A stretch of DNA of 57,760 bases, filler included, from Sphacelaria rigidula (GCA_964200075.2; 4 parts of 4 records of this genome joined end to end with filler, not necessarily neighbours in it); one strand, 5' to 3'. Counted from the first letter of the whole stretch, positions 11,101-48,938 are shown. Program-made: numbers and translations. Notes: generated by a model not told the origin, from the letters alone.

Positions 11101-11630
11101 TATGAGTTACCCCGACGTAATCTTAAAGAGCGAGGTTATTCATAAGCATCCGTCAATGCTAAGTTGTCATTTCCCCAATTGAAAATGGGAGAGCAAGTCA
11201 CCGTCCGTACACTACAACTGATGGACCAAACCCCAAGCTCGTCAGCCCATGGCGTGGTCCTTACACTGTCCGCGCTCAGTTGTTTCCCGTTTTTTACCGT
11301 GTCAGCAAAGATGGGGAGATGTCTCAAATCACTGTTCATCTCGGAAGGTAGACAAAATACAACCCGCCCCTCGATTCGTCTGTCCCTGATCTCTCAGCGC
11401 TCGATGACTTATTTTTAGGTACAAAGTTGCCAGTCCCCGACCTCGAAGGCTCCCTCAGTGCTGTCAAGCTGGGTCCCTTCACGGTCGAAGGGATCGACGA
11501 TCGCAAGCGCATAGTTGCACCGCGTCGCCGACCAATGTCCGTACCACCTTTTGTTGAAAGGTCATCCACCAGCTATGGAAGTTTGGAAGCATCATAAAGA
11601 GGTTCCCTAGTGTCGGGGAATGATAGGTCG
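8141..11630 (+). pseudogene. Ty3/Gypsy pol (RT, RNase H, integrase, chromodomain remnant), frameshifted
   Basis: RT: PYRSNP, SAWGSP, KKDGSPRFCVDY, MPFGV, YTDI (degenerate YxDD), YLGHVI. RNase H: FTVHTDAS, VYTDH. Integrase: GGHL, HCQSCQ, VDLV, IDHLTRF, HSDQGKEF, TPHFLMFGR. Chromo-like FTVEGIDDRK...YHLLLKGHPPAMEVW at ~11479-11630. Confidence 0.9.
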
Positions 11631-18608: not shown

Positions 18609-18819
18609 TGTCATGCGTGAGAGGACCGCGTGCTAAGAGGACCGCATCAGAATTTAACCATCTCCATGGTTAGAGTTAGGGTAAGGGTTAGTTTTGGGGT
18701 TGGAGTCAAGAGCGTGACCCCTGCAGGGACCGGCCCGATTGGTTTTGAAAAAAGTCGATACTGAGGTGTTTTGGATAACGATGTGGTCGTCTCAGCACGC
18801 GGCCCTCTCATGCATTCCA
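18609..18819. mobile_element. TGT...ACA MITE with telomere-like core, diverged copy
   Basis: TIR tgtcatgcgtgagaggaccgcgtg / cacgcggccctctcatgcattcca, flanked by GGGG on both sides. Confidence 0.8.
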
Positions 18820-21822: not shown

Positions 21823-24800
21823 ATGTCGCAACCCATTAGCCCCGTTTCCTCCCCGGGGTCGAGCGACAAACGGTTCCACCGTACACGCAGTCAAACTTTG
21901 AATCGTCTCCGCCACAGTGGGAAGGATGATACTCCACAATCCGCTCTTCAGCAGCATCTGAAGAGCAACGCGCCACCTACGGGCCTTGATGACCAGCAGC
22001 CTACAAGTACGAGCAGGCCTCACGACGTAACATCTCGTGACGGCTCTACAGCGGTTTCGACTGCAACTCCCATAACCCACGAGTTAACATCCCGTGACGT
22101 TCCGATACGGTTCCACGATGTACCATCCCGTGACGATTCGATGCCGTCTGGTGCCGATGCGCCCCCCTTGCTGAGGCATGCTCCCACGGATGCCGTTTTA
22201 GGATCCGTGGCTCAGGAGACACCTTCAGTTGAGCCTCGGAAGCGGTTTCGGCAACAGCGTCCAGTTCGGAAACGAAGCGATCCGCTTCCTGAGCTCGAAA
22301 CCCGTCTACGGGTGCTGCTCGTGTTGGTAGCCCTCAAACGGCGGCATCTGAGAGTCCAACGCGCCACACCCCGCCATCTGGTCTCGGCACCATGATTGAG
22401 GCCCTCTTCAGAACTCTGTCAAGTCTCCACCTGGCTCCTCTGACGATCCGGGTGCACAACGTTTCTCAGCGCTCAAAACTTTCTACGGTGATACGCCACA
22501 GCCTCAGGCGTGCCCCTCTTATGCGCAGGTCACCCGCGGCGCTCGCAGTACCGCGACTACTGCAGCTCGCACTGATACCGCTTTGATCCCTACGCGAACT
22601 GTGCAGTCTCCGCGAGGAAGCCGAGATGGAAATCACTCTCGTCTATCCTCCGCTCCCTACGGACGACGAGCCCGTGCCCTAGAACATTCTACGTCATAAA
22701 TCTGTCAGTGACAGCCACTCCCATGGGGGCAACACAGGCCACGGCCACCGCTCTTCGCGTGGCTCTAGACAATCATCCGGCCACAGTCACACAAGTAGTC
22801 GCGCTCCGTCTACCCGATGTTTGCAACATCGACAATCCTCACGCCATAATGACACCGTGCATGTGAAAGATGTCAGATATATTTTCTCCAATTCATCATC
22901 GGACCCAGCTTCCTCGACTAAGAAAGCTAGTGACAATTCCTTTCATGCACCCCGGCGTCATCGAACACGAGCTCGATATAACCACGATGTCCCATCCGGC
23001 GCCGCTGTCGATGCCGTCACTACCCGTACGCTCCAACAGCAGGTCTCGGACTTACAACACTCCCTTCTACAGATCATGTCGGCCAAACAGACATCAGTTA
23101 CACATTCGGCGGCAACGACCCCTACTTCGGCTTCTCCTTCCGCCGCCAAGCGCGCCACTACGGCATCCTCGGCCGCCTGAAAGGCTGCCCCTCTGGTGTC
23201 GACCGCCCCTGCCGCCGCCACAACCGCTGTCTCTTTTGAGACCGCCGTGCCTGCGGCAGCACTCACGAGCGCTCGCGGCGGCCAGACCGCGACGCCCTCC
23301 ACGGCCAACGGTCCCCCGCAGCCGCGACTTCCGGCGGAGTTTTGCCCCACGGGGTACCCCCAGTGCCTCTTTCTCGCGCATGATAAAGTCCGGCAAGACG
23401 AGATCATCGCTCGGTATGGAGCTGCCCCCCCGGGGCCAGCCATGCCGAACCAGCCGGCGGTCACTCCGGCGCAGACCCCGCCTCCCGCGGCCGAAGATAG
23501 TGCCGACGAAACTGCAATCCGCCTTCTTCGGGAGGAATACGCCACAAAACAAGCAAATTTGCAGCGGAACTCCACTACCGCCGCACCAGCACACTCCGCC
23601 ACCCTCCGGGCCCAGGCAGAACATCAATCGGTAGTGGCCGACAGGAAGCGGAAGGCTGCCGAACTCGCGGCCCACATAGACCGTACTGCGGAGCACGCCA
23701 TGTCGGCGAAAAATCTACTTTCGGCACATCAGGCTTCGCGCACACGCGCCACGTCGCTTTACCCTTCTCCGCCCGCACAGCGGACCACCGTTGACACCAC
23801 GCCATCAGGCTCAAGATCTTCGCCACCTGCCGGGTATCACATCCCCCGCAAACAAGATACCGGCTTCCCCGATGCCGCCCCTGCAGCCACCCCCGACCTT
23901 TCTCTCGCTCCCCACGAGGCCACCTGGCTAGTGCATACGGTTCGCGACTCCTCTGGAAAGGTTTCCATCAAGAACCCCCTGCAGAGCTCATGGACTGCCT
24001 GGGATGACATCCACTACAGCGCTCTGGTCGCGTTAGATTCATACATCGACAAGGGCGCGCCACTCCCGTTTAAGGACCCCCATGACCTCACGTTCGCCCA
24101 GCTGGTGGCCCATGCCACCACGAGTCCCAACAGCGGCGCCGGCGTATACAAGAGTGCGGCCCATAACCATTTACAGGCTTTCCAGAACGCCGTTTAGCCC
24201 GGCACTTCTGCGGACGACGACCACGACGATGACGATGATGGATGGACTTCGGTCACCGCCAACTGTCGCCCGCCTAGAGGCAACAACGATCATGATGATC
24301 GTCAGGGCGGCGGACGAGGCGGCCGCCGTGACGGCTCCGGGTCCAGCGGCGGGAGACTTCGAGGCGTCAACAGCCGGCGGGCCAACCGTGCTGCTCAGCA
24401 CGCAAATTGGCTCGTCGAACAGTTCTTCTCGAAGGCCTCGAAACAGAGATGAGTCGTCAACGGACCCTCCTCCTGTGGAGTCCATCGACGTTAGGCACGA
24501 CACCCCTCGTTCAGCTGATGTTTCCCGCGATACGTAAGGTTTGTCTGACACGGATGATAAAGTTCGGCCTTAATCTTCAACCTCTGCCCGCGCTTTAGCT
24601 GCCGCCGCTGTTAGCCAAGCACAGACTACAAAACGTGAGGCTGCAGCAGCTGCCGAAGTTGAAGCTGCTCGCGTTGCTGCCATACAGAGAGAGTACATAC
24701 AGATGGATGTCAAGAAACTATGGCATATTAACACCATGCCTGCGGCAGACAACGAGGACTCTGGACAGTTTACGTCGGGTCTTATTCAATCCATCCGCCG

Positions 24801-26052
24801 TACTGCAGGCAACATTCTGCAATTAGCGGATCGCACGGGTGTACAGCCGTTCGAAAGTTCCGTTTGGGTTGATGGTTGGCAGACCCCGCTTCACAAAGCC
24901 TTACATCGCGTCATCTCTCGCCGCTCGCCTGATCGTGCTTCTTCACTGACGCAGATCATCGATGGATTCATCACAGCGATGGATTCGGACCGTGCCTCGG
25001 GGCGACCTGGCCCCACAATACTCAGTAATCTGGAGCAGCGCTTGACCGATTACTTTGATCGGAGCACACAGGGTAGCTCCATACAACGTTTAAGCTCGTT
25101 TGGTGTAGCCACCAACGTTAGTTTCGCCGACTACCTTCGGCAGTTTAGGTTGTTGGTTTCCAGCACCTTAGGAACTGGCCGCCAGAGCGGGCCTTCCGAT
25201 TCTATGTATCAGTCATATGTCCGTACGAGCGTCTCCAAGCAGTTTCCGGCATTGATGCCGTCGTTGTTTCCGGGTGCCTTAGCACATTGCGAGGTGCTTT
25301 ACGCCTCTGTTGATGCGATGTGGACGGCTTTCGTCCACCAAGAAAGCAACCTCACTCCCGCCATTCGGGGTGACAAGCATTCGTCTTCGCGTTCACAGCC
25401 TGCCGCTGTCTCCCCCGCGAACACCTACGGGTCTCGCGGACGGAACCCGAGTTCACCTCGTAGTACATGGACCCCCGACTCTGTCGCCGGTTCAGTAATA
25501 AATGTTAAATAAACAAAGACCATTTCTGCGCGAGTTTCGACGGATGTCCGTACTCTGCCGAGACATGGGACGATGTTTATTTGACTTCTACGACAGCTTT
25601 TGACACAGATGACCCCCATTTGTGGAACCCGCTTCTGTCTTATTCGGCTAGACAAGACGCTTTTGGTTGCCACGCCAACAACTGTATCAATTGCAAAGCA
25701 CAAGGCCACAGCATGCGCAATTGCACCAAATCATGCATCAACGCATTCGACCTCATGAACCCTGCACTACAGGACAATGAACCCCGCGTGGCGCCGCTGG
25801 CAAAAACGGATGCGCGATCATCGTGCTCCGAGTGGTAATAATCGCAACCACTCGAACACCCGCGGCAACAATCGCTCTGACCGCACGCGCCGGCAAAACA
25901 CCAACCACGGTTCCGGAACTCGCCAACAGGATCGTATATCTCGCGCCAATCATTGCTCCGCTGATAGACACCAGCGGACGGGACCGGCACATAGCTCGAA
26001 CCCTAACGCCGGAAACCCTGGTACCTTCACTTCGGATCGCTTAGACCCATGA
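21823..26052 (+). pseudogene. Long gag-like ORF, disrupted, with CCHC zinc knuckle
   Basis: Successive plus-strand ORF fragments (21823-22395, 23196-24197, 24703-25512, 25581-25838, 25777-26052); CINCKAQGHSMRNC matches CX2CX4HX4C at ~25683-25724. Confidence 0.7.
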
Positions 26053-26658
26053 CGCAACAACGCCGGCGTTTTCAAGTCTTCGGCGCCGCCGACAGCACTT
26101 TCGAAGCTTTTTTCAACACTGCCCGCGGAGTCCGTGACTCAGATTGTTCACCTGACTCCACCGGCACTACACAGGAGTGCAACTGATGGCCGTCCAACTC
26201 GACCCCCGTCTTCGACCTCCACACACTTTGCAACACAGGCCGCAGAGCCCGCGACTAAGAGTGTCCGCCCGGCTCCTCCGGCAATATACAGGAGCGCAAC
26301 TGACGGCCGTTTATTTCGACCCCCGTCTCCACCCCTTCGCACACCGCGTAACAGTTGTGTCAATCCGTGACTCATACCTAAACCCGGCCCTGACTTTGGT
26401 CCTTCAGTACCGAGTGTAAGTCTGAGGTGTGGGAAGACCAACCGCCAGTCTCTGAGGCAACGGCTTCCCTCAGCGATCCCACGCACAGGTAGTCACAAGC
26501 TTTTTTCAGCTGACCCCAGGGTTGCTGATTTGAATTTGACCACATCGGATCATGTCGTCCTTCATCAGCTGGGTCGAGCTCCTTCCTCGCGATTTTCAAC
26601 CCGCGCAGAACTACCTTAGGCAAGTTTAAATAACTACCGCCCCAGAATACCTTCGGCC

Positions 26659-28758
26659 ATGTCTCCCCCGCGAAGCTTGCCTACGGAAAGCAGCCCACAA
26701 GCTTCGCCCCATCATGCCCCGATGCTGACCCCATCCACCCAACTGGACGCAGTTGTAGTCTCATCCCCAAATGCTTTGGAAGTTCCCCGCCCTTTGTCAT
26801 GGCGAAAGAGAAAGCCCCGTAAGCATGCCCCCAAGGACCCGCGCGCATCACTACGTACCCCTCTTTCGAGCGGACATCCTCGACCTCAATCCCTCCAAAA
26901 TGCGACGGCTTTGAGCTCCACGGCCCTGTCAAGTATCACGGAAGAAACGGAATCAGATAGTTCTGACGCCTCTTCTTGTTCAATGGACGACTCCAGGCAT
27001 ATACAATCTGGATCTGCCTTAGACGCTAATCTCTGCCAACCAAAGACGATCATTTATGAAATCGCTAATGGTCATCCTAACCGTGCCACACCTGGAAATG
27101 ATAAACCGTCCACCCCCTTCTTTGGTGAAGAATCTGACCCACCGGTGGACCCACCGCCTTCTGTTTTTGCTGCCAGCCACGCCGATCCTGACCAGTGTAC
27201 CTTGCCGGAACACGGTCCGGATTGTCGGCGGCAAAGTGTCTGTAGATCCGGCCACTTTCACTTCTTGCGTTGCGATCCATGCCGGTCCAAACGCTATCAC
27301 GCCTACGAAATGCGTATCTTTGTTGGACGGCGGCAGCCCGCAGCCATTTATTCGAAAATCAACATGGAAACACATGAAACAAACTGGCGCTGCTACTTCA
27401 GCTTGCGAAACCACCACCAAACCTCGCGTGTGGGGCGGTTTCGGTGATTCTGCCGCGCCACTGACGACACGAAAATCCTTACGTCGCAGTGTACAATTCT
27501 TTCACAGCACCACTCGATCTGCCAGCCTGGCAGTCTGGGCATACATCGTCCCCGACAACACAATGCATCACGCCATATTATTGGGCAGAGGTAGCTGTAT
27601 GCGATTTAATAAACGAACCTATCGCACGCTTCCACCACCAACGCCACATTCCACGCCGCGTAGAAAATTTAACCTCGAGCACTTCGGTACTCGCCACGGC
27701 GCCCTGGCTTATCAGAAGAATCCTCAAGCGACCGGAGCTGCTTACCACCTACGATATAACGGTAGCGTGGGTATTACACTCTACGACGACCCTCAACTTC
27801 TTGAAGTTGCACTAGTTCGCCGAAATGGCATGCCAGCACTTACGGGCCACAATCTTGCTGAAATGTTACCCTGTATTGGCGCACCAGCCGACACAGAATA
27901 TTTTGTGTCGGCGGGACAACAACTCCTTCCTCTTACGGGCCATGCTAATTTGGAACCCGGCGATGTTTTAGGAATCGCCGCTGCTGCCCTGATGCACATC
28001 CCACTCGAGACGTGCGTCACAGAGCCTGCCGCGCCTAACGCCATATCTCCGGCGGAGTCAGTCCATTGTGTCGATGAACCCTATTTCGACCATGCCTCCG
28101 CGACTCCACCCCAGGTCCACACCGTGGATCCTGCCCAGTCAAATTCCGATCCTCCGGCTGAAGTGCTTTAACGCTTATCACCAAATTCTCGGAATAGTTT
28201 CTTGCACATGTGGAACCAACTGCCGCCACACATGCGCGACATCAATTTTGACCTTCATGGGCTCGGCTGGGAACCGACAGTCATCCAAGAACTCAGTGAT
28301 GTCCTGTTGCAGTACCACTATCGATTTTCCCGATCCAAGACGGATCTTGGGCATTGCAAAACACTGCCCTTTGAGGTTACCCTCCAACCCAGCGTCACGC
28401 CGATCTCTTCCCGACCATACAGGACGAACCCAATCCTTACCAAAGAGGTTAACGCCATCTTGAATGCGTATTTGGGAGCAGGACTACTACAACATTCCTC
28501 CTCTCCTTGGGCCTCGCCACTTTTGGTTGTTCCTAAAAAGGACGGAAACATACGCATCACCGTGAATTACCAACGGTTGAACCGCGTCACCGTGATTGGT
28601 AAACTTCCAATCCCCCGCATTGATGAAGTCTTCGACTAATTAGGTGAAGGAAAAATATTCAGCACCTTCGACCTCGCTTCTGGATTCTTCCAGAATGCTA
28701 TCCACCTTGACACAGTCCCACTTGCGGTTTTTTGTACCTCGTCCGGGCTTCATGAATG
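26659..28758 (+). pseudogene. Gypsy pol: aspartic protease and N-terminal RT, with stops and frameshift
   Basis: Protease LLDGGSPQPFI ... ILLGR; RT SRPYRTNP, SSSPWASPLLVVPKKDGNIRITVNYQRLN, LPIPRIDEVFD*LGEGKIFSTFDLASGFFQ. Similarity ends before YxDD. Confidence 0.85.
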
Positions 28759-29187
28759 AACAACACATTGTGCGAATTGAGGTTTAACTCCGAGATGAGG
28801 TTCAAGCCTAAAACAGTGCTTTCCCCACACTTNNNNNNNNNNNNNNNNNNNNNNNNNNNNNNNNNNNNNNNNNNNNTTAATTAATTAANNNNNNNNNNNN
28901 NNNNNNNNNNNNNNNNNNNNNNNNNNNNNNNNGAACGAACCCAAGCGTGGGAATTCCCAGCCCCTCGTTGTGCTCGGCGTTTCCCATTTCGGTTGACGTG
29001 AAGATTTTGCCTCCCAAAACCATGCACTTTTGCGGGGGGGGGGCTATCGTAGAAAGTGTTTGGTGATGAGCCTTAATGTGGGAAACACACTGTCTAGTGG
29101 TTTTGATGCGTGCATCATGCTGACATCGAGTTCTATTGGCATGAACACTGCCGCCTCAGCAACGTTGTAACGAGCGAGTGTACACGA

Positions 29188-29287
29188 GTGGCCACTGGGG
29201 TGCCCGCGACCCCAAGTTTGGACGTTACAGACGTTGCACAAGATCTGTAACGTCCAAACTTGGGGTTGCAGGCACCCCAGTGGCCAC
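29188..29287. repeat. 100-bp hairpin (inverted repeat); one arm recurs at ~42874-42912
   Basis: gtggccactggggtgcc.gc.accccaagtttggacgttacaga / tctgtaacgtccaaacttggggttgcaggcaccccagtggccac. Confidence 0.85.
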
Positions 29288-29525
29288 CCGTCTACCGTCA
29301 CAGGGCTCCGGCGACACCGACAATACATTTTATCTGATGACTGATCTCTGGTGCCTTTTGTCATGTGTACTAGAGAAAACGCTCGAGACAATCAGCGGTC
29401 ACACAGCCATGATGACCGTCTATGTGATTCCCACGGAACCCACAGTGTGAAGCGAGCATGCTGTGCTGTGGACAACACCCATAGCGAACACCGGCCTTGG
29501 GGTGTTGCGTTCTTGGTTGACTCAC

Positions 29526-32500
29526 CCTTCTCGCAACATTCGCGCTTGTCGCATTCGTCGCGGCACTTTTTGTCACCGACGTTCAGGAAGCCGCTGGGGC
29601 ACCTGTAGTCGTCCTTGCACGTCTTCACCTCTGAGAATGACACAACAGTCAACGGACGAGTCACATCTTGGCGTGAAGTATTAACTGTACACTGGAGAAA
29701 AAACCATGTCGGAATGACGCTTCATGGTTTTTAGTACTTGTGATCATTTTGAGAACACCCCAAACAAATGTATACAACCATGTATTGATATGTGATTCAG
29801 AGCGGTATCGTTGGCCCAAGATCTCTAGCGATGCTCGGCTCTCCGTGTCCAAGTCAGGATCGTGATCAGGGCGACTGATTCAAAGAGAGAACGACTCTCG
29901 CAGTCTAAATCAAAGTTTGGGCACGTTTTTGCCGACAGCTGCGCAAGGTGGCACGACTTTGAATCGAGAAATCCTGCAGTTTGTTGACTCGATTGTGATC
30001 TTGAAACGCATGCCGGTGTGTATGTTTGTGTACTTCCTGTCCCATGAGTGAGGCCGGCTATGTCACACGGGCTTCAAAAGATGACCGACTACTTCGCGTT
30101 TCTCAGTTCGAAAGGTTTGCCTGTTTTGGTCACGCACGCCTTGATGTAGGCGAGGGGCCCCAAACAATCCAGGAACCCCAAAATTGTCGTATTTCGCCTG
30201 ATTCCAGGCGGGAAAACCGCACAATCGGCTCACTTTATTTGTTGATCGCATTCCAATCAGGCATCGATCGCGACTGCAGATGTCGCGTCGTCCAAGACAC
30301 TCACCTTTCTCGCAACACTCGCGTTGGTCGCACTTTCCACGGCACTTCTTGTCACCGCGGTTCAGGAAGCCGCGGGGGCAGACGAAGTCATCCTTGCATA
30401 TCTTGACCTCTGCAACGAAAACGGCATCCAATGGCCGAGTGTCATCGTGACATCCGAGCGAGCATTGCATGCTATCCCTGGCCTTAAATGATGTGATGTT
30501 GACTGTCCTTCACGGTGTACCAATGCAAGGCTGATGACCTCCAAGTGATCACGTCATTTACTCCACCACGCCGTTTTGCCAAATGTATGACTTGCACGTT
30601 GTACCGAGCTCTACTGTCCCGTAGGGTTTCTCATTTCCTCTCCACGTGACACTTTCGACAGGTACGCGGGCCAGCTGCTTCGAACGTGTATGTGCCAATA
30701 ACGATCAACTGAAGGGTTTGCTTCCCCCAGACACTCACCCTTCTCGCAACATTCGCGCTTGTCGCACTCGCCGCTACACTCCTTTTCACCGCGGTTCAGG
30801 AAGCCGCTCGGGCAGGTGTAGTCGTCCTTGCATGTCTTCACCTCTGAGGCGGACACGGCAGCAGTGACTTCCTCTTGAATGAGATGCGGTAGCTGGTTTG
30901 TAGTACGCGAGATCTGCGGTTTGCGTGAAGATTTGCTTCTTCGATCGCTCATGCTGGATTACTCCGACTTTGCCGGCAACTCGACCCACTCTTCGATCGA
31001 GTGGGGTGCTTTACTGTACTGTGATGATCAACGTAGTGGCGAAGGTAACGAATGCATGACGACTCGTGACGCTTGGCACTGTAGTAGTCAGCATCAGAAG
31101 TTTTCAGAATTCGTATTTGCGTAGTCAGCATCAGAGTTTTTTTGGAGTGCCGTTTTTCACAACAACTTGAAAGTACGCACGCCGGGAGATCTAGAGAGAA
31201 GGCGTAGGCCGAGCTCAAACTGCAGTGCTCAAATTGGTGTTCTTGGGGCGATACTGACTTGACCGTTTTTGATCCAGCATGAGCAGTTTCCCCGCTCTTC
31301 AGCGACGAAACGGTAGACATTCAGATATTTGATACGTATAAAATTCTTCACGATAACGATCAAGATCGTGTTCCCCTCCTATACTGCACAGACCTCAGTC
31401 TAGCGTTTTTTGTGAATATCCTATATTCGGGATTTTCTCGCATAAAACTTTCCGTGAGCACTCAAAAGTTCTAGCGTCGATAGTTTTGGCAAAATAAGCA
31501 AACGGTGCTCAGGTCACGATCGCCCAAGTTGGTGTCGTTGGGGCGAAACCGGGTCAAGACCCCGTTTATCAGGGTGTTATGGACCGTAAATAAACGTAGT
31601 TTGCCTGTTATGCTTAATGACCAGGTGGAATTTCAGAAAAACATCCCTTTCGAGTACTCATATAATCCGGATCAAGTCCGTCCACCAACAATACCGAAAA
31701 GCTAGAGCCTGAGATAGTATTTTCGCAGGACCCCCGAAGATCGGTCAAGCCCGTTAGTCACTCATAATTGATCGCAGATGATATTTTTTCGGTATTTGTC
31801 GAGAGGTTCAAGATATTTCCGGATGCCCATTTTTTGGCATTCCACACTCATTGTGATGAGCGGTGGCGAGCAAAACAAGGTTGAACAATCTTCGAGAAAC
31901 TAGGAAAATACGGATTCGCACACTTTTGACGCTGACTACTGTACAGCGTCACGACAGCAACTTCGATGATGTATTTGTAGGGTGGCTCGGCAGAAAAAAA
32001 CACGAAGTTCGCGCCCGGCCAGGAGTCAGGGCGGTGACAAGAAGACCCCCTCCGTCGTCATGGTCGTTGTGCTAGATGTATACCCTCAAGATGATGGCAA
32101 AATGTTCTGAAATGATAGCTGATCTCTTGGACCGTATCCAAGCCGATTGTACACTACATACAGCTGCAGGTATTGCTCCTCCCAGACCCTCACCCTTCTC
32201 GCAGCATTCTTTCTGGTCGCACTTTCCACGGCACTCCTTGTTACCGAGGTTGAGGTAGCCGCGGGGGCACTTGAAGTCGTCTTTGCACGTCTCCTTCTCT
32301 GTAACGGCCAAAGGACATCAATAGAACACCCGCGTTGCTTCGTTTCGCCGGACCTTCCACAGACTAGAAGTGTGGCCGTTCACAACCAAGATTGTGATCG
32401 ACGGCATAAATGCGGCTCGATTGTTGCACACGTCTAATGGCGTGGGCGATGGGTTTTCAACACGTTGCACTCCACAGACAACAGCGGGGCTGTGTGTGTA

Positions 32501-35500
32501 CTGACGGTGCACTGCAACTCTACGCAGTGCTTCCTGAATAAACTCACCCTTCTCGCAGCATTCGCGCTTGTCGCACTTGCCGCGGCACTCCTTGTTACCG
32601 ACGTTCAGGAAGCCCCTGGGGCACGTGTAGTCGTCCTTGCAAGTCTTCACCTCTGCGACAGACACGGCAGCCAAGCGGTGGAAATCGTCATAGCGTCTAA
32701 CCAACGGGCGTGCTGGGCCACTTTCACAGTAGAGAACGTACCGGTAGGACCCATGGTTTTTCACCTCGACAAACTTCCAACTACTTCAAACCTGATCTGT
32801 CCCATCTAGGTAACATTTTCGGTGATCTGCGCGTTTATATGGATTTTAGAGGGGTATACTTTCATCTGGTGACTCTTGACCTAATACTCAGATCACGTGT
32901 AGTTATTAGAAGCGATCCAGACGTATTCAGATCAACTTTTTTCCGGGATGAAACCGAGGTTCAAAGGGTTCAACGCATGCCTCTAGCGGTACACATGCAA
33001 CACATACGTGAGTATATCGAATCGGACCAGTACACCTGCACCACGTCAACTCGCATGCGCATCTGCCGAGAACGATACTCGGAATCACCGGACCCAGGGG
33101 TGCCAGCTGTACCATCAGGTCACCGTTGTTGTGCGTGAGTGAACCGCGTGCTGAGAGGATCGCGCCGTAGTTCAAAACACCTCAGGATCGACGTTTTTCA
33201 AAACCAATCAGGTCAGTCCCTGGCGGTACCACGCCCCCGACCATGGGGATGTTCAAATTCGAATGCCGTCTTCCAAGCACGCGGTCCTCTCTCGCATTAC
33301 AACCGGGTCGCGGAGAAAACCCTCCATGAATATGAATTGCCTTGTACACGCTCACAGGCCTCGGGACTGCTACTTGGTGAACTCCCACAATTGCCATGTC
33401 GTATTGTTTGTCTCAAACGTACTGTGCCATGTCCGCAACCACCAAATAGTCAGCGAAAACACATTCGCACCAGTTCTTCATCCCACTTCTACAACACCAA
33501 GGGCACATGATATTGACTGCAGTCGACGGTAGATGTTACTCCTCTCGGGCACTCACCCTTCTCGCAACATTCGCGCTGGTCGCACTTGCCGCTGCACTCC
33601 TTGTCACCGCGGTTGAGGTACCCGTCAGGGCACTTGAAGTCGTCCTTGCACGTTTCCTTTTCTGTGACGACCAAATGAGCGACATCAAAAATATCGAGTC
33701 GGGAGAGCACGAAGGGGTTGGCGGGAGGGAGTTGATTGTGGTCGGCGTATCTTTTCACATCACCTGATTCCAGCGCGGATTCGCCTCCTGCTCGAGCCTA
33801 GCACGAATTCCACTGAAGCACAACACGGTCGGATACAAAAATCATATTCGGCAGCGTTCGCGGGTCGAATACAACATGCGTACACTCCACGATCGGAGCC
33901 TTTGCTATCGTTTAACCCGGGACGTTATATTGTTCGGTGAGAAGGGCTCTTTTTTTCAGCCATAACACCTTGTACCATCGAAATCGCCGACCCAACGACC
34001 TCAACCGCTGACCAAAAGCGGACCTCGACCAATACTGACTTGCGGAGTGAGCGGACTAGTCCAGTCTCACACACCAAGAGCATGGATATCGCCTTCTCAA
34101 GGCGTTGCATATGAGTGTCAACGGCGAAACCATGCATGTCCTGTCCGTGCACCACAGCACGTGTCGCTCCTCTCGGAGATTCTCACCTTTCTCGCAGCAT
34201 TCGCGCTTGTCGCACTTGCCGCGGCACTCCTTGTTACCGACGTTCAGGAAGCCGCTGGGGCACGTGTAGTCATCCTTGCAAGTCTTCACCTCTGCGATTG
34301 ACACGGCAGCCGGCGGGTGGGCGTCGTCATCGAGTTCCAGCGAAGCTGACGCACCTTGTAACTGAAGCGTGGTGGGCCGCTTCAAAGAACAGTGAGTACG
34401 AATCGCCATTACTGGCATTATTGGTGTACTGTTGTAAGTGCGTGAGAGGACCGCGTGCTTGGAGGACCGCATCGGAATTCGAACATCCCCATGGTTAGGG
34501 TTAGGGTCAGGGTTAGTGTTAGGGTTATGGTCGGGGGCGTGGTACCTGCAGGGACTGGCCCGATTGGTTTTAAAAAACGTCTATCCTGATGTATTTTGAA
34601 CTACGGCGCGGTCCTCGAAGCACGCGGTCCTCTCACGCATTACACTGTAGTTCGTTATTTTTGTTGTACTTCCAACCCTTCTTGCTCAGGACGAGCCCTT
34701 GGTCTCACCCGGTACAGGCCTTCATTTCGGTATCGCAGGTTGACTGAACATCCCCGCACGGTGCCCAGTCTCGTCAGATTGGCTTCGCAGTACAATCTCG
34801 TCATACAAGCAATATATGCGTCATTTGTATTGAGCAGCTCCATGCCCGCGTTCACTGCCGTATGCGATATCCCAGCCCCCCCGTCACATCCAAACCGAAT
34901 GCTGTAGACACTCACCCTTCTCGCAGCATTCGCGCTGGTCGCACTTGCCGCGGCAATCCTTGTCACCGCGGTTGAGGTAGCCGTCAGGGCACTTGAAGTC
35001 GTCCTTACATGTTTCTTTTTCTGTGACGCACAAGTAAGACCAATAGATCATGCAACATGTCGTGCATGGGTGTGTCAATCTCAAGCTTGCCTCATTCAGC
35101 AGGTCCTGCTTCGAAGCATCGTGGGTGGCCATAGCAATGGGTTCGGCACCGGCAGCATACGCGCTTCAGGTGTACGCAGTTCGTACCCATTGTAATGCGT
35201 GAGAGGACCGCGTGCTTAGAGGACCGGATCAGAATTTGTACATCCCCATGGTTGGGATTAGAGTTGGGGTTAGGGATAGTGTTGGGGTTATGGTCAGGGG
35301 CGTGGTATCTGCAGGGACTGGCCCGATCGGTTTCAACAAACATCGATCCTGAGGTGTGTTGAATTACGGCGCGGTCCTCTCACGCATTACACGCATGACC
35401 CAATTCTTGGCCATCCAGGACCGATCCAATAGCTTCAACGATGACGACCACGAGAGTTGCGTTGCCTCCTACACACGGGTCGATATCCTCACGACAGCCA

Positions 35501-36566
35501 CATGTTCATGATGCGCTGGTTGTTCCGGCTCTTTTCAGATTATTCCTCGCCACCAACGATATAATAATATTGCCATCCACGACCAACTGATTCATCGCCG
35601 TTGCCACGTCGTCGTGAAACTAGTGACTAGTGCACTATTTCCGACCCAACTGCGATGGTCTTGTACTGCGTGGGAAGACCGGGTGCTCAGGGCATTACAT
35701 CGTAGTTCATAACACCCCAGGATCGACGCCTTCCATAACCAATCGGGCGGGTCTCTACAGGAACCATGCCTCTGACCCTGACCCCAACCATTAACTCCAA
35801 TGCAGCCCCCCAAGCACGCTGTTCTCCCACAAATTTCATGTCTTCTCGAATAACGTTCCGATCCGGTTTCGCAAGTGGTGGGCATTTCTAATCGATTTCG
35901 ACTGTCGACTCATCGTCCACCAGCAACACATGCAACAGTCCGGACGTCGCTTACCCTTGAAGCAGCAGTCATACTTGTCGCACTTGCCACGGCATCTCTT
36001 GCGGTCGTCGCCAATTGGCTTCCACTCACCGGGGCAAGAGAAATGCTTGCACTTGTCACGCTGCTTTGTGGAGTGAGTAAACCGGTGTAGGCAAGAAGCA
36101 AACAGCACACATCATGTTGGTGATCAGTAATGCATCACATGCCGGCAAATAATTGGCCAGCGTTCGTGCCTCATGCCCTCTAGTTTTCAGTTGACAGCGA
36201 CGACGCTTCTGGTATAGATCTCATCTCGTCTTAGGCCCCACCTTCCGTATGCTGCCTCTGCGGTGCTAATCGCGCGCGAACCTACACATTCCCCGAGGAA
36301 TACTGCCGAGTAGAATATACGTCGTGAAAACGTGTACTAACGTGAAATAATTTGCGATGCCTTACCAAGTGGCACATCATGCATACGGTGTGATGGCAGT
36401 CTCCACACTCCGGCTCTGCATCCCCGGGCCACAGGCATTCCTTTCGACCGCACACTGAGTAGTGCAGGAGAATAACTGGCCTGAAACCAGATAATCTGGG
36501 CGAAGGCACCTTTGTCCTCCTTCTTTTCCCAGCATGGCTTTGTGGCCATGGGCGCTAGATTTTCGG
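29526..36566 (-). CDS. Multi-exon gene (partial) encoding a tandem six-cysteine-repeat protein, one repeat per exon
   Basis: Eight 105-nt phase-1/1 exons with CAG acceptors and GTGAG donors: 34916-35020, 34187-34291, 33557-33661, 32548-32652, 32194-32298, 30739-30843, 30305-30409, 29526-29630, e.g. EVKTCKDDYTCPSGFLNVGNKECRGKCDKRECCEK. Upstream, phase-compatible exons: 35955-36060 (RDKCKHFSCPGEWKPIGDDRKRCRGKCDKYDCCFK), 36366-36454 (CGRKECLWPGDAEPECGDCHHTVCMMCHL) and, less certain, 36510-36566. Start and stop codons not located. Confidence 0.85.
33127..33301. mobile_element. TGT...ACA MITE, copy lacking the telomere-like core
   Basis: Degenerate left TIR, right TIR cacgcggtcctctctcgcattaca, flanks ACCGT/ACCGG. 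Confidence 0.75.
34433..34644. mobile_element. TGT...ACA MITE with telomere-like core
   Basis: 24-bp TIR, internal ggttagggttagggtcagggttagtgttagggtt, TSD CTGT/CTGT. Confidence 0.9.
35191..35391. mobile_element. TGT...ACA MITE with telomere-like core
   Basis: TIR tgtaatgcgtgagaggaccgcg, flanks CCCAT/CGCAT. Confidence 0.85.
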
Positions 36567-38148
36567 CTGGTGATTGTGATGAAACACGTTATTGCTAAAC
36601 TATGTTGAATGAAGCCATACTAGAGCAAAGAGACGTTGACTATACAGGGAGCTCAGTAGATGAGAATTTCGGGCCCTCCTCGCGGAGGATATTTCAAATT
36701 TCGCGTGCCAAAATGTTTCCCGTGCGTAGTCAGTCTACTCTGATACAGGTACAAACAGCCGATCATCTATGTTGAGGATGGTGCTTTTCAATGAGGATGA
36801 GAACCCGGAGGATTAAAATCTTCGTATTCACACTAAATCTTCGAAATATGGTTCCCTTTCTTCACCTACTGATAGCTAATTATAACTGCTACATGTCCCA
36901 AACATTTGGATGTCAATAACCGAAATGTTGTGGTCCTACGGGAAAATCCAATATCGGGGAATTTCGGCGATCCGGGTCCAATGTTATGAGGAGGATGAGA
37001 TCTACAATGCAAAAGAAAACAAGGCAGGAAACAAAATACAAACGCAGGGGGATAAGGAAGGCCATGAGTTGTTCCGAGCTGTTCCAAATCCGCTTTGTCC
37101 CCAATCATCTTGGTTGAAGTACACAACTCTAGTGCTTGCATCGCGTTTCCTCGCGCAGCCGTTGTAAAACGCGTCCAGAATAGGGCCTCAAGTCAGTCCT
37201 GATTCCCCACATAACTGTAGTTGTCTAGAATCAGGTTTTGGGTTCTTATTCGACTCCCCTTCCCGGGGACATATAATATCTCGTGGGTTCCACGCCCCCT
37301 CGAACGAATTTCAACTAGTCGAGGTATGGTACCTCGATTCCATTTGCGCCCCCACCCCCCCTCCAGGACAATGCTAAACTCAGCATCGTGACCACCATGA
37401 TGAACTGTACCGGATGCAAGTAAGTGGTGAGTGATGCCGCGAGAGTCATTCTCGAGCCAGCCCAAAAATTGTGAAAAAATTGAGGCTGCATGAGGCGCCT
37501 CGTTTGGGCGACATAGGTGAAAACGACCCAAATCGTGGCAGTTCCGAACTGCTTGGTGCGCTCTTTTGCTGATTTGATTCGTTTGTGATGTATGCGATGT
37601 ATGTGTGTGTTGTCGTCCCACCTATTCTGGGCGCCGGTCTGCACCTTTCCGTGTATATGAGCGCAGCAGCCGGGGTCACCGGAAGGTCAACAGAGGAGTC
37701 TTTTTTCCTTTGTTGTTGGTAATCCATCTTTGTTTTCCGGTTCTTGCCTCTGTTTTGTTTCGCGAGAGGGGTCCAGCAGCCCTTTCTGTCGTCGACCATC
37801 GAGTCCCGTGTGCCCTTGTGGGCACAGCGTCATAGATCCGTCAGGCTGTCATCGCCGTGTTCCCGGTCATTATCCAGAATCCACTCAAAATCCTCCAGAA
37901 TCCCCATGTTCGGTCATTATCCAGATCACGACCAATTCAACATGACGTAATTTCGTCAGTACCGACGACATAGTCGCTCTTCACTGTTGAGCATTGCGTG
38001 AGAAAAAATCTCAGATTGCTTCCAGATTTGAATACATGACCCAACCGTCAGAGGGTTTCGAGGTTACCGACTGAGCCACCGGGGCGACCGACAGTGACTC
38101 ACGTGTAGATCTCGCCTCCCCAAACCAGTCACTGTCACGCGGGGCGCT

Positions 38149-38470
38149 TGTAATGCGTGAGAGGACCGCGTCCTTAGAGGACCGTGTAGTAGTCCAAAAT
38201 ACCTCCGGATCGACGTTTTTGAAAACGAATCGGGTCAGTCCCTGCAGGTACCACGCCCCGGACCTTAACCCCAATACCAACCCTAACCAGGACCGCGTCG
38301 TAGTCCAAAATGCCTCCGGATTGACGTTTTTGAAAACCAATCGGGTCGGTCCCTGCACGTACCACGCCCCGGACCCTAACACCAACACCAACCCCAACCC
38401 TAACCCTCACTACGGGGGTGTTCAAATTCCGATGCGGTCCTCTAAGCACGCGGTCCTCTCACGCATTACA
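38149..38470. mobile_element. TGT...ACA MITE with an internal ~110-bp duplication
   Basis: TIRs at both ends, TSD CGCT/CGCT, segment ggaccg.gt.gtagtccaaaat.cctccggat present twice. Confidence 0.9.
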
Positions 38471-40950
38471 CGCTATCGCAGCATCAGTCTGGTTGACCAA
38501 AATCATCAATAGAGAGATCTCATCGTTAACGTCACGTACCACATGGACACTCGATTCAGTAAAACCACGCTGGTTGTTGTTGTCCACAACGCCGAAGGAA
38601 AAGACTTTCAATATGGTGCCTAACTGAACCAATGTGATTCGGCTTTTCAATCAAAGGGTGGCTCATCTGTTAAATCGTTCAACATGGTCGTTGGCTACCA
38701 CTGCACCCATTCAGCTAAGCGTATATAACACTATATTCGTGAGATACAGAATGTAGTTTCAGATTCAGAGTCAGACCCGAAACAATCGACTTTCCCGTCG
38801 ATTTTGACATCGCCACAGTTCGNNNNNNNNNNAATGAAAGCTGTCACCTACACGGTCAATTTGACACATCACTTGATCGCAACGACGCAGTCAGTCCATT
38901 GCAACAAAAGATCCCCTTCATCAGGAAAAAACGATTAGTGCCTGAAACAGTTCAAGTTCCGGAATGCCCCCCAGGCGTAAAAATGCTTCGGGCGGTATCT
39001 CACCAACCAGACCGCCGAATTCCTCGAATGGGATACTGTACGGTAGCGGCATGCACAGGACGTGTGCTCAAGCAAAAGAAAAAAGTTGGCTGTTAGGAAC
39101 GCTATAGAGCATCCAGTCCGAGTCTGAAACTACGTTGTGAATCTCACGAATTTAGTGTATATATACGTACATACTGTACAAAAACCATTCGATCCCCTCT
39201 GCACTACACTTGCAAAATCTGCATTTCAGTGTACGGCAGTGAGCCAGATTTGTACTATATGTCACCTTGCGGCCACGGGAGGTGAGGTCGCGATGCGTAT
39301 CTGCTGGGTCAAAGTCCTCCTGATCAGCAACTGCGTGCTCCCCGCCTGCCGGCACGAGTGATCAAGGCAGACGTTGGGGTTAGGTCAGCGCATGAGGCCA
39401 CAAACGTGATGCACGGCAGAGACGAGACATTTTTTCACCATGCCGGTGTACCGTTTCAGCAGCCAGCCCAGAAGCTGGAAACCTTCCACAGAAAATATCT
39501 CGACAAGCGCAGCGACACATCACGAAGCTTACCCATTCTTGTGATGGGGGGATCACCATGCTTGTGCTCCGATAGCTTCCCTGTACTCGAGGGTGTTCAC
39601 ACAAAAGATAATGTCGTGACTGCCCGCATCAGAGTGAAGAGAACGTGGGTTAATTTCTCACCAGATGCGTTTTTCGCTTACGAAGTAGAGTGTTTTCATC
39701 GTGAAAGGCGGGAGGATGTGAAGAGAGATGGATTCATCTCTCGAGACCACGGATTCGTCGTGAGAAAGGGGAGGGGTAAATAATGTGTGAAGAAAATGAT
39801 GTGCCGGTAATATATCGGACACGGGATTTTACGAATCGGGGATGGATCTTTCATCACGGATGAAGACCCCGGGGATTGAAATCTTCGTATCCGTACTAAA
39901 TCTTCCAAGTATGCTTCTATTTTTGCACTAACTGGTAGCTTTTGAAAACTACTACACGCCATACAAGTTTCGATTCCGAAAACCGAAATGTTGGGGTCTC
40001 AGGTGAAAAAACAATTTTTGGCGTCCGATCGGACACCAAAAATCGCTCAAATTTGGGGGTGTGCGCGGCCCTCTAGAGCCAAAAATAAGCCTCAATCCTC
40101 CGGTGACGTTCGATTCCTCTGGAGGCTCGAAACGTTTACCCACCTGGAGGAATTTTAGGGGTGGCCAAATTTGCCGAAAGCAGCGCCTGGTTTGCCAACG
40201 CCACACTTTGCCTAGCAAACTCTCTGGACCCCCCCTCGCTCGAGAGTTCTCGGTATGTCTTGGGCTGCGATGAGATTTTGCCAACTGATACTATCACCTC
40301 GCCTTGGCCGGTCCAGGTTGTATCAAGTATTCATGCATTCAAATGAAACTTTCGTTTTCGAACCTCAGGTGTCGCGCATTACACGGTCGACCGCATCGAA
40401 CCCGGACTCCAAATTCAAGACTGTGGAGTTCGTTGGGCGGGGCACATGTCGCATTCCTCTCAGGATGACATTTTTTGAAGTTTCCGGCAGTCGTGCTACA
40501 AGACAGTGTGGATCAAGGCTTCAGGGGATGGACGTTGGGCAGAAGCCGGACATGAACGTCACCTTGATACTCGTGGCACTGGCTCTACGAAGTAACGTGA
40601 CGTTAATTCCGAGATGGGGCATAATAACGCGCTACTCATTTTCGCGCACGCTTGAGGCATTCATATGTATACCGCGGCATGGTATCATGTACCCGCCACA
40701 TGAATCAGCAGTAGCATCGCAGAAGCAACTCCACATTAAAGTGATCTAGTCCGTTTGTAGTATCGAGGATGTCGTGCTGCGCTGGGCAAACTCGTCTCAT
40801 TGTCCGGACCTTCGGCCTTCACTTGCTGACTCCAGTTGAGCGTTTCAGCCCGTCGGTTTCCCTGTACCACTACGGTGAAAGGTCTGGGAACTGAACGTGT
40901 GTCAGACAGTGGAGTTTGCAATATACTAATTATTGTAACCAAAACTCCAC

Positions 40951-41161
40951 TGTAATGCGTGAGAGGAACGCGTGCTTCCAGGACAGCGCCGTAGTTCAAA
41001 ACACCTCAGGATCGACGCTTTTCAAAACCAGTTGGGCCAGTCCCTGCAGGTACCATGCCCCTGACTATAACCCCAACACTGTCCCTAACCCTAACCCTAA
41101 TCCTAGGGATGTTCAAATTCCAATGCGGTCCTCGAAGCACGCGGTCCTCTCACGCATTACA
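40951..41161. mobile_element. TGT...ACA MITE with telomere-like core
   Basis: TIRs, internal ccctaaccctaaccctaa, flanks CCAC/TCAC. Confidence 0.85.
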
Positions 41162-42160
41162 TCACCATCAATCCTGAAAGGACAGTTCAATTCAAACAGT
41201 GGGCACCTGAAACGAGCATAGGAAGTCGATCGTCCAAAATACCGCCGTGGGTGACCTAGAGAAGTGTGCGGTGCCCATGCCGCATCATCCTCGGGATACA
41301 AACAGCACGCTTCAGCCATGCGCTGCCGGATATGTGTCCTTTCATAACGATGTTCTTCAACTGTCCAAATATAATCTGGGAGTTAGTCTGCCCAACTGGG
41401 TACGAATACAAGAGGTTTAATCATGCACCCAAGTCGCCAAGCGACGCCCTTTGAAGGGATACTCGAAATCTCAGTCATCAGCTGCTCACTCTACAACTCT
41501 GCAGGGACACACAGCACGCGATGTTAATACCAGCAAGCAGGTGCAGTAAAAGCCTGCGCGTTGTCAGTAACATACGATTGTATACTTGTTCCCATAATTT
41601 CAAGAATCTCATACGCTATGGAATATACCATGACATCACCACCGTTCGAACAAATCCCACCGCACACTGTTTGCACTGACCTTCAGGTTCAACAACAGCG
41701 GTGGATCCCCATGCCAAACCCAGCAACAGCAACAAAAAGGCTGTTTTCTCGCCTCTGATCTTCATGGTAGACCTTGCTCTCGAGAAGTGAAGCTGCTAGG
41801 AGGCCGAAGGTGGTGTGAAATTACTGTTGCACACTACACCGGAAGGGGAGTAGTCTGGAGAATGAGAGAGGAAGGGGTTATGGTGTGGGATGCGGAGATG
41901 GGGGGTTGCGGGGGGGGGGGTAGGCACGACTGAGAGGCATACCTAAATTATAATATTTCACCGGTGCCGCTCGGAGTATACGTCTTATATTCTGTCCGTT
42001 TTTTCTCATATATGTGTCGGGGTATTCACGTCTGTGTGGTGCAGGTCTGAAAACCCGCACTGGAGCGCCGGAGAAGACCCGAGTTTGAGGCGACCTGAAG
42101 TTTCGGGCGTAGATCTAAGGTTGAGCTTTTTGAACAAACAAAAACAAAAACATCGCTAAC

Positions 42161-42793
42161 TAGAGCTGGGTAATGGTTTGTCTAACCATTAACCAGTTGA
42201 ATGGTTACGGGTAGCGCACTCATTAACCATTTAAATGGTGCATACTGGTTTGGTCATCAAGCAGCGCAGCCGCGACCCACGAAGCCCTCCGCGGTAGAGG
42301 GGGGCCCGCCGGGGGCGCCCCCGGATAGCTTCGGTGGAGGCGCCGTGTAATGTGTGAGAGGACCGCGTGCTTAGAGGACCGCGCCGTAGTTCAAAATACC
42401 TCAGGAGCGATGTTTTTCAAAACCAATCGGGCCAGTCCCTGCAGGTACCACGCCCCTGACCCTAACCCCAAGACTAACCCTAACCCTAACCCTAACCCTA
42501 ACCATAGGGATGTTCAAATTCCGATGCGGTCCTCTAAGCACGCGGTCCTCTCACGCATTACACGCCGTGCCAGAGGCACGTTTTTACGCGATGAGGCTTC
42601 ACTAGAGCAAAAGAATACGTGAAATTTGGACCAATTTTCAAGGGCTGTATGCAGCCTACGTAGCCGGTAACGGTTTCTAAAGCCGGTAACGGTAAATTAT
42701 GGTTCGAAATCATCATCCAAAAAACATATTGCCATTGCCATTATTACCATAATGATAATGGCCAGTTATAACTGGTATCATTTCCGAGCTCTA
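42161..42793. mobile_element. hAT-like non-autonomous element hosting a nested MITE
   Basis: TIR TAGAGCTGGGTAATGGT vs reverse-complement TAGAGCTCGGAAATGAT; 8-bp flanks TCGCTAAC/CCGCCAAC (6/8). Confidence 0.6.
42346..42562. mobile_element. TGT...ACA MITE with telomere-like core
   Basis: TIRs, four to five CCCTAA units, perfect 5-bp TSD CGCCG/CGCCG. Confidence 0.9.
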
Positions 42794-48923: not shown

Positions 48924-48938
48924 TAAAATTATCATCGA

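Follow-up and report, generated by a model that had tools for sequence, protein, structure and literature searches.

In Ectocarpus, each leucine-rich repeat (LRR) of the ROCO genes is encoded by a single exon of 72 nucleotides (nt), and a genome-wide screen found very few one-repeat-per-exon loci other than those with LRRs or tetratricopeptide repeats (TPRs) (PMC3341825). EsV-1-7 is the only cysteine-rich family discussed in the accessible parts of the brown-algal genome papers (10.1101/2024.02.19.579948, 10.64898/2026.04.27.720984). Diatom frustulins are recognized by C-[QE]-G-D-C-D and V-P-G-C-S-G in acidic cysteine-rich (ACR) domains and by at least three of five frustulin features (PMC4712521). 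Here we describe a gene of the brown alga Sphacelaria rigidula (GCA_964200075.2) that encodes a tandem array of 35-residue, six-cysteine modules, one module per exon. It lies in a stretch of 57,760 nt, filler included, which was analyzed as a whole and is called the window below. In animals, symmetric exons with phase 1 introns on both sides, preceded by a signal-peptide exon that ends in phase 1, are the hallmark of shuffled extracellular modules.

The gene model consists of 11 exons (85, 80, 106 and 8 x 105 nt; Table 1) on the contig at 28933-43296. It comprises 1111 nt, or 370 codons without a stop, and all ten introns are GT..AG with lengths of 249-3205 nt. We favor the reading, with a probability of roughly 0.6, that this is a real, spliced nuclear gene of a brown alga and that its product is a secreted, disulfide-rich, modular protein of the wall or matrix.

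To locate the modules, all six frames of the window were scanned with the pattern C-x5-C-x(9-13)-C-x3-C-x4-CC. Exactly eight matches were found. Every one of them lies on the minus strand and has x11 as the variable spacer. The cysteine positions set the reading frame. 8/8 module exons are preceded by ..cag and continue into gtgag at the donor side, and 8/8 are 105 nt long, with 2 nt that finish a split codon and 1 nt to spare at the end. Each is therefore phase 1-1. The symmetric class 1-1 arrangement, in which a module occupies one exon whose length is a multiple of 3 and both introns are in phase 1, was found in 8/8; it describes an architecture and not a homology family. The scan and the reading of the borders confirm what a sequence-only reading had claimed, namely eight 105-nt phase 1-1 exons with the spacing C-x5-C-x11-C-x3-C-x4-CC. 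That reading had also proposed a divergent ninth module. It proved real: when a module profile was compared with the six-frame translation of the whole window, the eight modules were recovered at E ~1e-21 and the ninth at E 0.0023, the next best match having E 0.31 only. The exon of the ninth module (exon 3) and exon 2 together form a 186-nt phase 1-1 block.

19/34 columns are invariant among the eight modules, including all six cysteines, P11, G13, G18 and the terminal E-C-C-E-K. Two subtypes were distinguished. Subtype A modules start with E-V-K-T-C and contain C-D-K-R-E-C-C, whereas subtype B modules start with E-K-E-T-C and contain C-D-Q-R-E-C-C. Read from exon 4 to exon 11, the modules run B A B A B A (A/B hybrid) A.

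Table 1. Exons of the six-cysteine module gene and copies of the miniature inverted-repeat transposable element (MITE)-like family, in window positions. CDS, coding sequence.
Feature	Position	Strand	Description
Exon 1 (candidate)	41681..41765	-	85 nt CDS from ATG at 41765; ends in phase 1 at GT donor
Exon 2	39266..39345	-	80 nt; phase 1 in, 0 out; acidic linker/pro-region ending R-G-R-K
Exon 3, divergent module	35955..36060	-	106 nt; phase 0 in, 1 out; C-x4-C-x13-C-x3-C-x4-CC
Exon 4, subtype B	34916..35020	-	105 nt, phase 1-1; RNA-like joint to exon 3
Exon 5, subtype A	34187..34291	-	105 nt, phase 1-1; RNA-like joint to exon 6
Exon 6, subtype B	33557..33661	-	105 nt, phase 1-1; RNA-like joints to exons 5 and 7
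Exon 7, subtype A	32548..32652	-	105 nt, phase 1-1; RNA-like joint to exon 6
Exon 8, subtype B	32194..32298	-	105 nt, phase 1-1; own joints not among the joints listed
Exon 9, subtype A	30739..30843	-	105 nt, phase 1-1; motif, borders and profile match
Exon 10, A-type start and B-type end	30305..30409	-	105 nt, phase 1-1; motif, borders and profile match
Exon 11, subtype A	29526..29630	-	105 nt, then GT donor; frame open
MITE-like copy	33127-33302		
MITE-like copy	34439-34644		
MITE-like copy	35190-35382		
MITE-like copy	35661-35788		
MITE-like copy	38154-38465		
MITE-like copy	40956-41156		
MITE-like copy	42351-42557		
MITE-like copy	18614-18814		

Transcription was examined with contigs aligned to 28933-38822 from three RNA-like runs (X6, X7 and X8) and one DNA-like run (X1). 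None of the runs is on record as RNA, and the RNA nature of X6-X8 was deduced from empty introns and splice-type joints. In most bins holding module exons the summed contig depth of X6-X8 is 1e4-1e5. It falls to 0 in the single-copy bins 29923-30252, 36193-36522 and 37183-37512, where X1 has depths of 24.4, 20.9 and 53.4, respectively. Exon bins in X1 reach 10-50 times the depth of single-copy bins, although summed contig depth is neither a measure of copy number nor a ranking of expression. 15 of 180 joints were listed. Among them, the joint 35020>35955 between exons 3 and 4 occurs in one contig each of X6, X7 and X8, and the joints 33661>34187 (exons 5-6) and 32652>33557 (exons 6-7) also occur in X6-X8; none of the three occurs in X1. 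All have CT..AC ends, which are GT..AG on the gene strand, and all lie exactly at predicted exon borders.

A database protein of the same species, P0002 (CAM9170217.1, 61 amino acids (aa)), reads across a module junction as predicted, and 60/61 of its residues agree with spliced exons 5-6. The module gene is transcribed and spliced. Because of the spliced contigs and the junction in P0002, the gene must be real, as the sequence-only reading had supposed for a gene with one module per exon. Expression may come either from this locus or from near-identical copies. It is scarcely credible that the array is a decaying tandem repeat or pseudogene whose frames were left open by recent duplication. 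The model lacks its 3' end, and NCBI labels every product of the family 'partial', as might be expected of decay, but spliced contigs are found in three runs, 370 codons are free of stops, and the substitution ratios described below lie well under 1 beside introns that cannot be aligned.

The model stops short of the 3' end of the gene: the frame is still open at exon 11, and the contig runs out 593 nt further on, at 28933. A terminal exon was sought within 28933-29525, but none of the three frames read could be assigned, and the cover there overlaps a high-copy repeat (X1 depth 1.5e5). A near-perfect hairpin with 57-nt arms, 89% complementary and separated by a 2-nt spacer, is situated at 29180-29295, just downstream of the last module exon, in a bin that is very deep in the DNA-like run. 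It is probably another small foldback or MITE element.

The 5' end was traced from an X7 contig on the ninth module, which continues past 36062 into 20 letters unlike the adjacent DNA. Together with a border-ambiguous AG, these letters have a single exact match in the window, at 39266-39287 (0 mismatches, 0 expected), with a GT donor directly after it. The match of this loose contig end defines exon 2 and its splicing to the ninth module. An in-frame stop 18 nt upstream of exon 2 leaves just one usable AG acceptor, and the start of exon 2 and its phase 1 are thereby fixed. Since exon 2 has no ATG, a further upstream exon ending in phase 1 is required. The best candidate for this exon begins with ATG and a basic start; a leucine-rich hydrophobic core of 12 residues comes next, then small residues, and the GT donor lies one base beyond codon 28. 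Of 30 gene-strand open reading frames (ORFs) that begin with ATG upstream of exon 2, none scores higher for hydrophobicity, and among the 1082 ORFs of the window it ranks within the top 1.0%. Signal-peptide features were judged by this hydrophobicity scan. Candidate exon 1 resembles a signal peptide and its donor has the very phase that exon 2 requires, suggesting that the two exons are spliced together. An extracellular location, which had been proposed from the repeat, is plausible with such a phase-compatible exon upstream.

The locus had earlier been placed at 29526-36566. Within these limits the module exons stand, but the 5' exons were missed and the gene is cut at the 3' end. A further exon rich in cysteine and histidine, thought to lie upstream of the modules (~36330-36500), was abandoned: it has no RNA-like cover (zero in the X6-X8 bin 36193-36522) and is bypassed by the exon 2-3 junction. 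Across that junction R-G-R-K is followed by R-D-K-C, which creates an R-x-K-R motif after an acidic stretch and before the first cysteine. The motif may be a pro-peptide or convertase site.

Selection was examined by comparing nonsynonymous with synonymous substitutions (dN/dS, Nei-Gojobori) between modules. dN/dS is 0.06-0.44 in 28/28 pairs, and the mean synonymous proportion (pS) is 0.405 vs a nonsynonymous proportion (pN) of 0.126. Selection on the modules is plainly purifying. Without gaps, the exons of different modules are identical at a mean of 0.83. Within 50 bases of the exon the value drops to 0.41 on one side and 0.39 on the other, and over bases 51-100 to 0.25 and 0.24, which is the random level. 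Local alignments extend at most 39 nt into the upstream and 30 nt into the downstream intron in 28/28 pairs. Even the closest pairs lose similarity at the exon edge, exons 5/7 being 92.7% identical over 150 nt with a synonymous divergence (dS) of 0.11 and exons 4/6 94.2% identical over 120 nt. Synonymous divergence as low as this (down to 0.11) beside introns that cannot be aligned would not be expected of old duplicates with purifying selection at the protein level alone. Exon-limited short-tract gene conversion or strong synonymous constraint probably also acts on the exons. The sequence-only reading had described the introns as largely unrelated and invaded by MITEs, which agrees with these identities and with the MITE-like copies in the introns. 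It had also taken the contrast between exons and introns to imply purifying selection; the selection is real, but alone it does not account for the contrast.

Elements of the MITE-like family measure ~200 nt; inverted repeats form their termini and enclose a degenerate, telomere-like (TTAGGG)n core. Its terminal repeat has 13 matches in the window vs 0 expected. Several copies, five by this reading, are located within introns of the module gene. BLAST matches among introns lie between or within I1, I2, I3, I4 and I6, mainly at putative MITE copies, the exception being one match of 164 nt and 76% identity between I1 and I2. In the DNA-like run, bins that hold MITE copies have depths of ~1e5 vs ~25 in single-copy bins, which suggests that the family is present at very high copy number. 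The element in intron 2 contains a tandem 111-nt unit in 2.0 copies with 90% matches (38178-38399).

The RNA-like contigs also contain joints between exons that are not neighbors: 33661>34916, 32652>34187, 29630>33557 and 30843/30838>34916. In addition, loose contig ends carry an A-type exon start after exons 7 and 4, with letters unlike the next genomic exon. The shorter sides of the non-neighbor joints span only 19-28 letters, in exons 78-94% identical to one another, and 1480/3990 X6 contigs fit two places. Because the short sides, the two-place contigs and other expressed module copies come together, these joints are not assignable. They could be exon skipping, which the sequence-only reading had considered possible, but paralogues or de Bruijn chimeras explain them equally well.

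This bears on whether the gene encodes a diversifying recognition or adhesion protein, whose isoforms would arise by skipping, swapping or duplicating the symmetric exons. Exons of equal length and phase 1-1 would keep any subset in frame, and the non-neighbor joints, together with the A-type exon that follows exon 7 where the genome has a B-type one, are what such a protein would produce. The joints have the competing explanations just given, however, and neither the dN/dS values, below 1 in all pairs, nor the large share of invariant columns fits a diversifying protein. We regard this explanation as distinctly unlikely. The gene is conserved rather than diversifying, contrary to the earlier suggestion of a diversifying family, though its isoforms may vary.

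The LRR-ROCO and NB-ARC-TPR genes of Ectocarpus (PMC3341825, PMC11378527) share with this gene a fixed-length exon per repeat and the gain or loss of repeats in frame. Their products, however, are intracellular solenoids with positively selected sites, whereas the protein described here is cysteine-rich, probably secreted and under purifying selection. Neither LRR nor TPR was matched in Pfam, dN/dS is below 1 throughout, and only the one-repeat-per-exon layout is common to this gene and the immune-receptor candidates of the Ectocarpus type.

Relatives were sought with an exhaustive HMMER profile search of 1,835,955,588 representatives. 19 proteins were returned at E up to 1e-3; 13 are true relatives, all of them fragments. 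The profile has 33 positions and limited sensitivity, so that distant relatives with few repeats would miss the threshold. Two relatives, P0002 and P0003 (CAN0019027.1, 97 aa), are each deposited as 'unnamed protein product, partial' of Sphacelaria rigidula. They have the same module, cysteine spacing and module-to-module junction as the window gene, and P0003 is a more divergent module pair, one of which has the C-x4-C spacing of exon 3. They differ from it in being fragments that lack a name, a domain and a function and come from other contigs, and the window does not encode either of them exactly. These deposits suit a brown-algal origin of the window, most likely S. rigidula or a close relative. 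Each of the remaining 11/13 (P0004-P0014) corresponds to one module exon, read through at its borders in the same way (..E-x-x-T-C.. and ..CCEKG-E..), and so does each of three additional members of their clusters (P0021-P0023), which likewise consist of one module exon. None of these 14 is encoded in the window, and each is identical to the nearest module here at 24-28/29 positions. The module family is therefore multi-copy. A search for longer relatives of P0002 yielded just two single-exon ORFs, and a search for near relatives of P0003 yielded only P0003 itself.

P0015-P0020 were rejected as relatives, as their similarity is confined to the Y-x-C-P-x-G-Y hairpin (profile positions 6/7 to 17-29) and the other cysteines are lacking. 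Five of them (P0016-P0020), 446-806 aa long, are apparently bacterial; in each, 6-10 copies of Y-T-C-P-S-G-Y-T-x-S-G-x-x-C were matched to profile positions 7 to ~20. This motif looks like an unrelated two-cysteine hairpin repeat that is a recurrent source of false matches.

Known domains were sought by sequence and by structure. Two single modules and P0003 matched 0 families in Pfam-A at E up to 10, and P0002 gave a sub-threshold match to Shisa_N alone (14.2 bits vs a cut-off of 22, E 0.046). EGF, Sushi, TNFR, FOLN, LRR, TPR, ROC-COR and NB-ARC were not matched in Pfam at E up to 10. Among PDB sequences the profile found one chance-level match, to a Sushi hairpin in complement receptor 2 (E 2.1). 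AlphaFold2, given a 21-row alignment, modeled one module as a short hairpin and two helical turns with a mean predicted local distance difference test (pLDDT) score of 81.6; a single-sequence model of P0003 reached a pLDDT of 54.9 and was not used. Foldseek returned for the one-module model a single row from the PDB (1bnb, beta-defensin, E 9.3, probability 0.02, template modeling (TM) score 0.32), 0 rows at E up to 0.001, and one row from BFVD (E 3.3), sensitivity being low for so small a model (34 residues at that pLDDT). The best feature score in the ESM Atlas was 0.77, with TM by query at most 0.40 and nothing above chance. JGI metagenome contigs scanned with the module profile gave 170 pattern matches and 0 confirmed. 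The module is undescribed in the literature searched, though the Phaeoexplorer orthogroup and expansion tables, which were outside that search, might list the family. As judged from these comparisons, the module appears to belong to no described domain family and to represent a lineage-restricted family. The impression that the repeat is not a named domain has thus held against Pfam, PDB sequences, the ESM Atlas and Foldseek.

The model contains 54 cysteines in 370 residues (14.6%) but only 2 tryptophans, and 170 residues (46%) are charged, in line with the estimate of about half made earlier. Positive (K 58, R 29) and negative (D 42, E 41) residues are near balance. Such a cysteine content could also suit an intracellular metal-binding (metallothionein-like) or zinc-finger repeat protein, in which the cysteines bind metal as proposed for EsV-1-7. 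Brown algae have expanded one cysteine-rich family of putative zinc fingers (10.1101/2024.02.19.579948). Like the modules, the EsV-1-7 (IMM) family has a short cysteine-rich repeat and is lineage-restricted; it is expanded in brown algae (10.1101/2024.02.19.579948, 10.64898/2026.04.27.720984). EsV-1-7 is described there as a putative zinc finger, whereas the modules have no Pfam match at E up to 10, a search in which the presence of the EsV-1-7 model in the library is unconfirmed. Moreover, the modules lack histidine and stand behind a signal-peptide-like exon. Their cysteine count is even and invariant, and the CC pair would be typical of disulfide knots. A metal-binding protein is therefore very improbable.

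Two further alternatives were weighed. In the first, the gene would encode a polyprotein precursor that is cut into single 35-residue, three-disulfide peptides with an antimicrobial, defense or signaling role, as in defensin-like or knottin polyproteins. The layout resembles that of a pre-pro-protein with R-x-K-R just before the first module, the size and six cysteines of the module are typical of such peptides, and the sole PDB row from Foldseek is a beta-defensin, though at chance level. However, the eight 105-nt modules adjoin without linkers, and their junctions, ..C-C-E-K / E-[VK]-[KE].., contain neither a dibasic nor a recognizable processing site. The K-R in C-D-K-R-E-C-C sits between cysteines, and the Pfam, PDB-sequence and Foldseek searches revealed no similarity to a peptide family. 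A polyprotein is thus unlikely.

The second alternative is a secreted tandem-domain inhibitor comparable to the multi-Kazal, pacifastin and antistasin arrays, whose targets would be pathogen or grazer proteases. Such inhibitors are usually built from tandem domains of 30-40 residues with six cysteines, often one per exon, and the array described here has this layout and a candidate secretion signal. But no inhibitor family was matched in sequence or in fold at E up to 10, and C-P-x-G-[FY]-L-N-x-G, a loop conserved as well as almost any stretch of the module, is unlike a variable reactive-site loop. We consider an inhibitor quite improbable. The polyprotein, inhibitor, diversifying receptor and metal-binding explanations each lack a feature that would be expected of them.

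Diatom frustulins invite comparison as well. Their ACR domains are acidic cysteine-rich repeats of secreted, wall-associated stramenopile proteins for which calcium binding has been proposed, and the hexapeptide C-Q-G-D-C-D resembles C-[RS]-G-[KED]-C-D of the modules (PMC4712521). The window protein differs in having no V-P-G-C-S-G, no polyglycine or proline-rich linkers and no tryptophan-rich domain, and the frustulin combination is absent from its 370 residues. No frustulin was recognized among the 19 profile matches at E up to 1e-3, a search that included no direct comparison with a frustulin sequence. The likeness would be a functional analogy at most.

The architecture also resembles that of class 1-1 extracellular modules in metazoan matrix and plasma proteins, such as EGF-like domains (Patthy's exon-shuffling modules; for the topic, PMC8001218). 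These share the small, disulfide-rich, one-exon layout with both introns in phase 1. Candidate exon 1, which would encode a signal peptide, likewise ends in phase 1. The Y-x-C-P-x-G-[FY] hairpin of the module resembles the hairpin of EGF and Sushi domains, although the Sushi match is at chance level and C-x3-C-x4-CC is not the EGF cysteine pattern. In a stramenopile alga, a class 1-1 architecture would be convergent with the metazoan modules.

How might such a protein be made and used? The wall or matrix reading proposes that the gene encodes a pre-protein or pre-pro-protein, with a signal peptide on exon 1, a short acidic stretch, R-x-K-R and then at least nine 35-residue modules in uninterrupted succession. 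The six invariant cysteines of each module would presumably form three disulfides, and with ~46% charged residues the modules would be nearly net-neutral. The product is most likely a secreted, disulfide-stiffened and zwitterionic protein, built like beads on a string and belonging to the cell wall or extracellular matrix. Surfaces that mix Lys/Arg with Asp/Glu could bind anionic wall polysaccharides such as alginate and sulfated fucans, either directly or through Ca2+. Growth of the array by in-frame exon duplication would follow from the uniform length (105 nt) and phase (1-1) of its module exons, and the alternating A/B pattern of modules would still be visible afterwards. Purifying selection, together with synonymous constraint or gene conversion limited to the exons, may have kept the exons alike, while the introns decayed and gained MITEs. 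We infer secretion by way of exon 1, the disulfides, pro-peptide cleavage and the matrix role.

Several observations weigh against this reading. The RNA-like cover examined ended at 38822, short of exon 1 and its splice. A protein search for near relatives with the exon 1 ORF found no database protein that resembles it, and the signal peptide was called from the hydrophobicity scan only. The missing 3' end leaves room for a transmembrane anchor, another domain or a different architecture. Among the joints listed, just 3/8 neighbor junctions between exons 3-11 are represented, X6-X8 were classed as RNA by conjecture, and several contigs differ from the window by a few letters and so come from alleles or paralogues. 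The searches yielded no homologue of known function and no structural match that would tie the protein to the wall or to polysaccharides.

A broader extension of the wall or matrix reading is possible but doubtful. The module may be an independent, brown-algal counterpart of the exon-shuffled extracellular building blocks of metazoans, with a new three-disulfide fold on class 1-1 exons, and may have given rise to an abundant wall or matrix family of the Sphacelariales or of a few lineages. The number and order of modules would vary among paralogues, strains and possibly, through skipping, transcripts, and short-tract conversion would keep the exons uniform as the introns turn over.

The structural proteins of brown-algal walls are largely uncharacterized. 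This gene is a concrete and apparently well-transcribed candidate, and neither Pfam nor the solved structures include its module domain. The class 1-1 layout parallels the assembly of matrix proteins in animals, so the gene offers a test of whether a multicellular lineage of independent origin took the same genomic route. In current annotation the family is represented only by partial products (61 and 97 residues) and single-exon ORFs. Because of this fragmentation, analyses of orthogroups and gene family expansion will miss it.

Other features of the window were also noted. The window is made of several contigs joined by linkers at 14367-14466, 28833-28932 and 43297-43396, each of which consists of 44 N + TTAATTAATTAA + 44 N with stops in all six frames; adjoining pieces need not be genomic neighbors. 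A plain gap of 10 N is present at 38823-38832. The region 22000-28200 (+) is GC-rich (0.54-0.60 vs ~0.48 elsewhere) with open frames of 255-382 aa, and the four ORFs tried from it had no Pfam match at E up to 0.01. ORFs at 8419-11145 (+) match RVT_1 (E 6e-12) and the integrase core rve (E 7e-13), as in the pol of a long terminal repeat (LTR) retrotransposon. At 47367-50486 (+) there are two adjoining ORFs, 518-519 aa in length. One, the first, weakly matches reverse transcriptase, and the second has matches to an ALOG domain, a zinc-ribbon and, weakly, a tyrosine recombinase (Phage_integrase), so that this region looks like a DIRS/Crypton-like tyrosine-recombinase retroelement.

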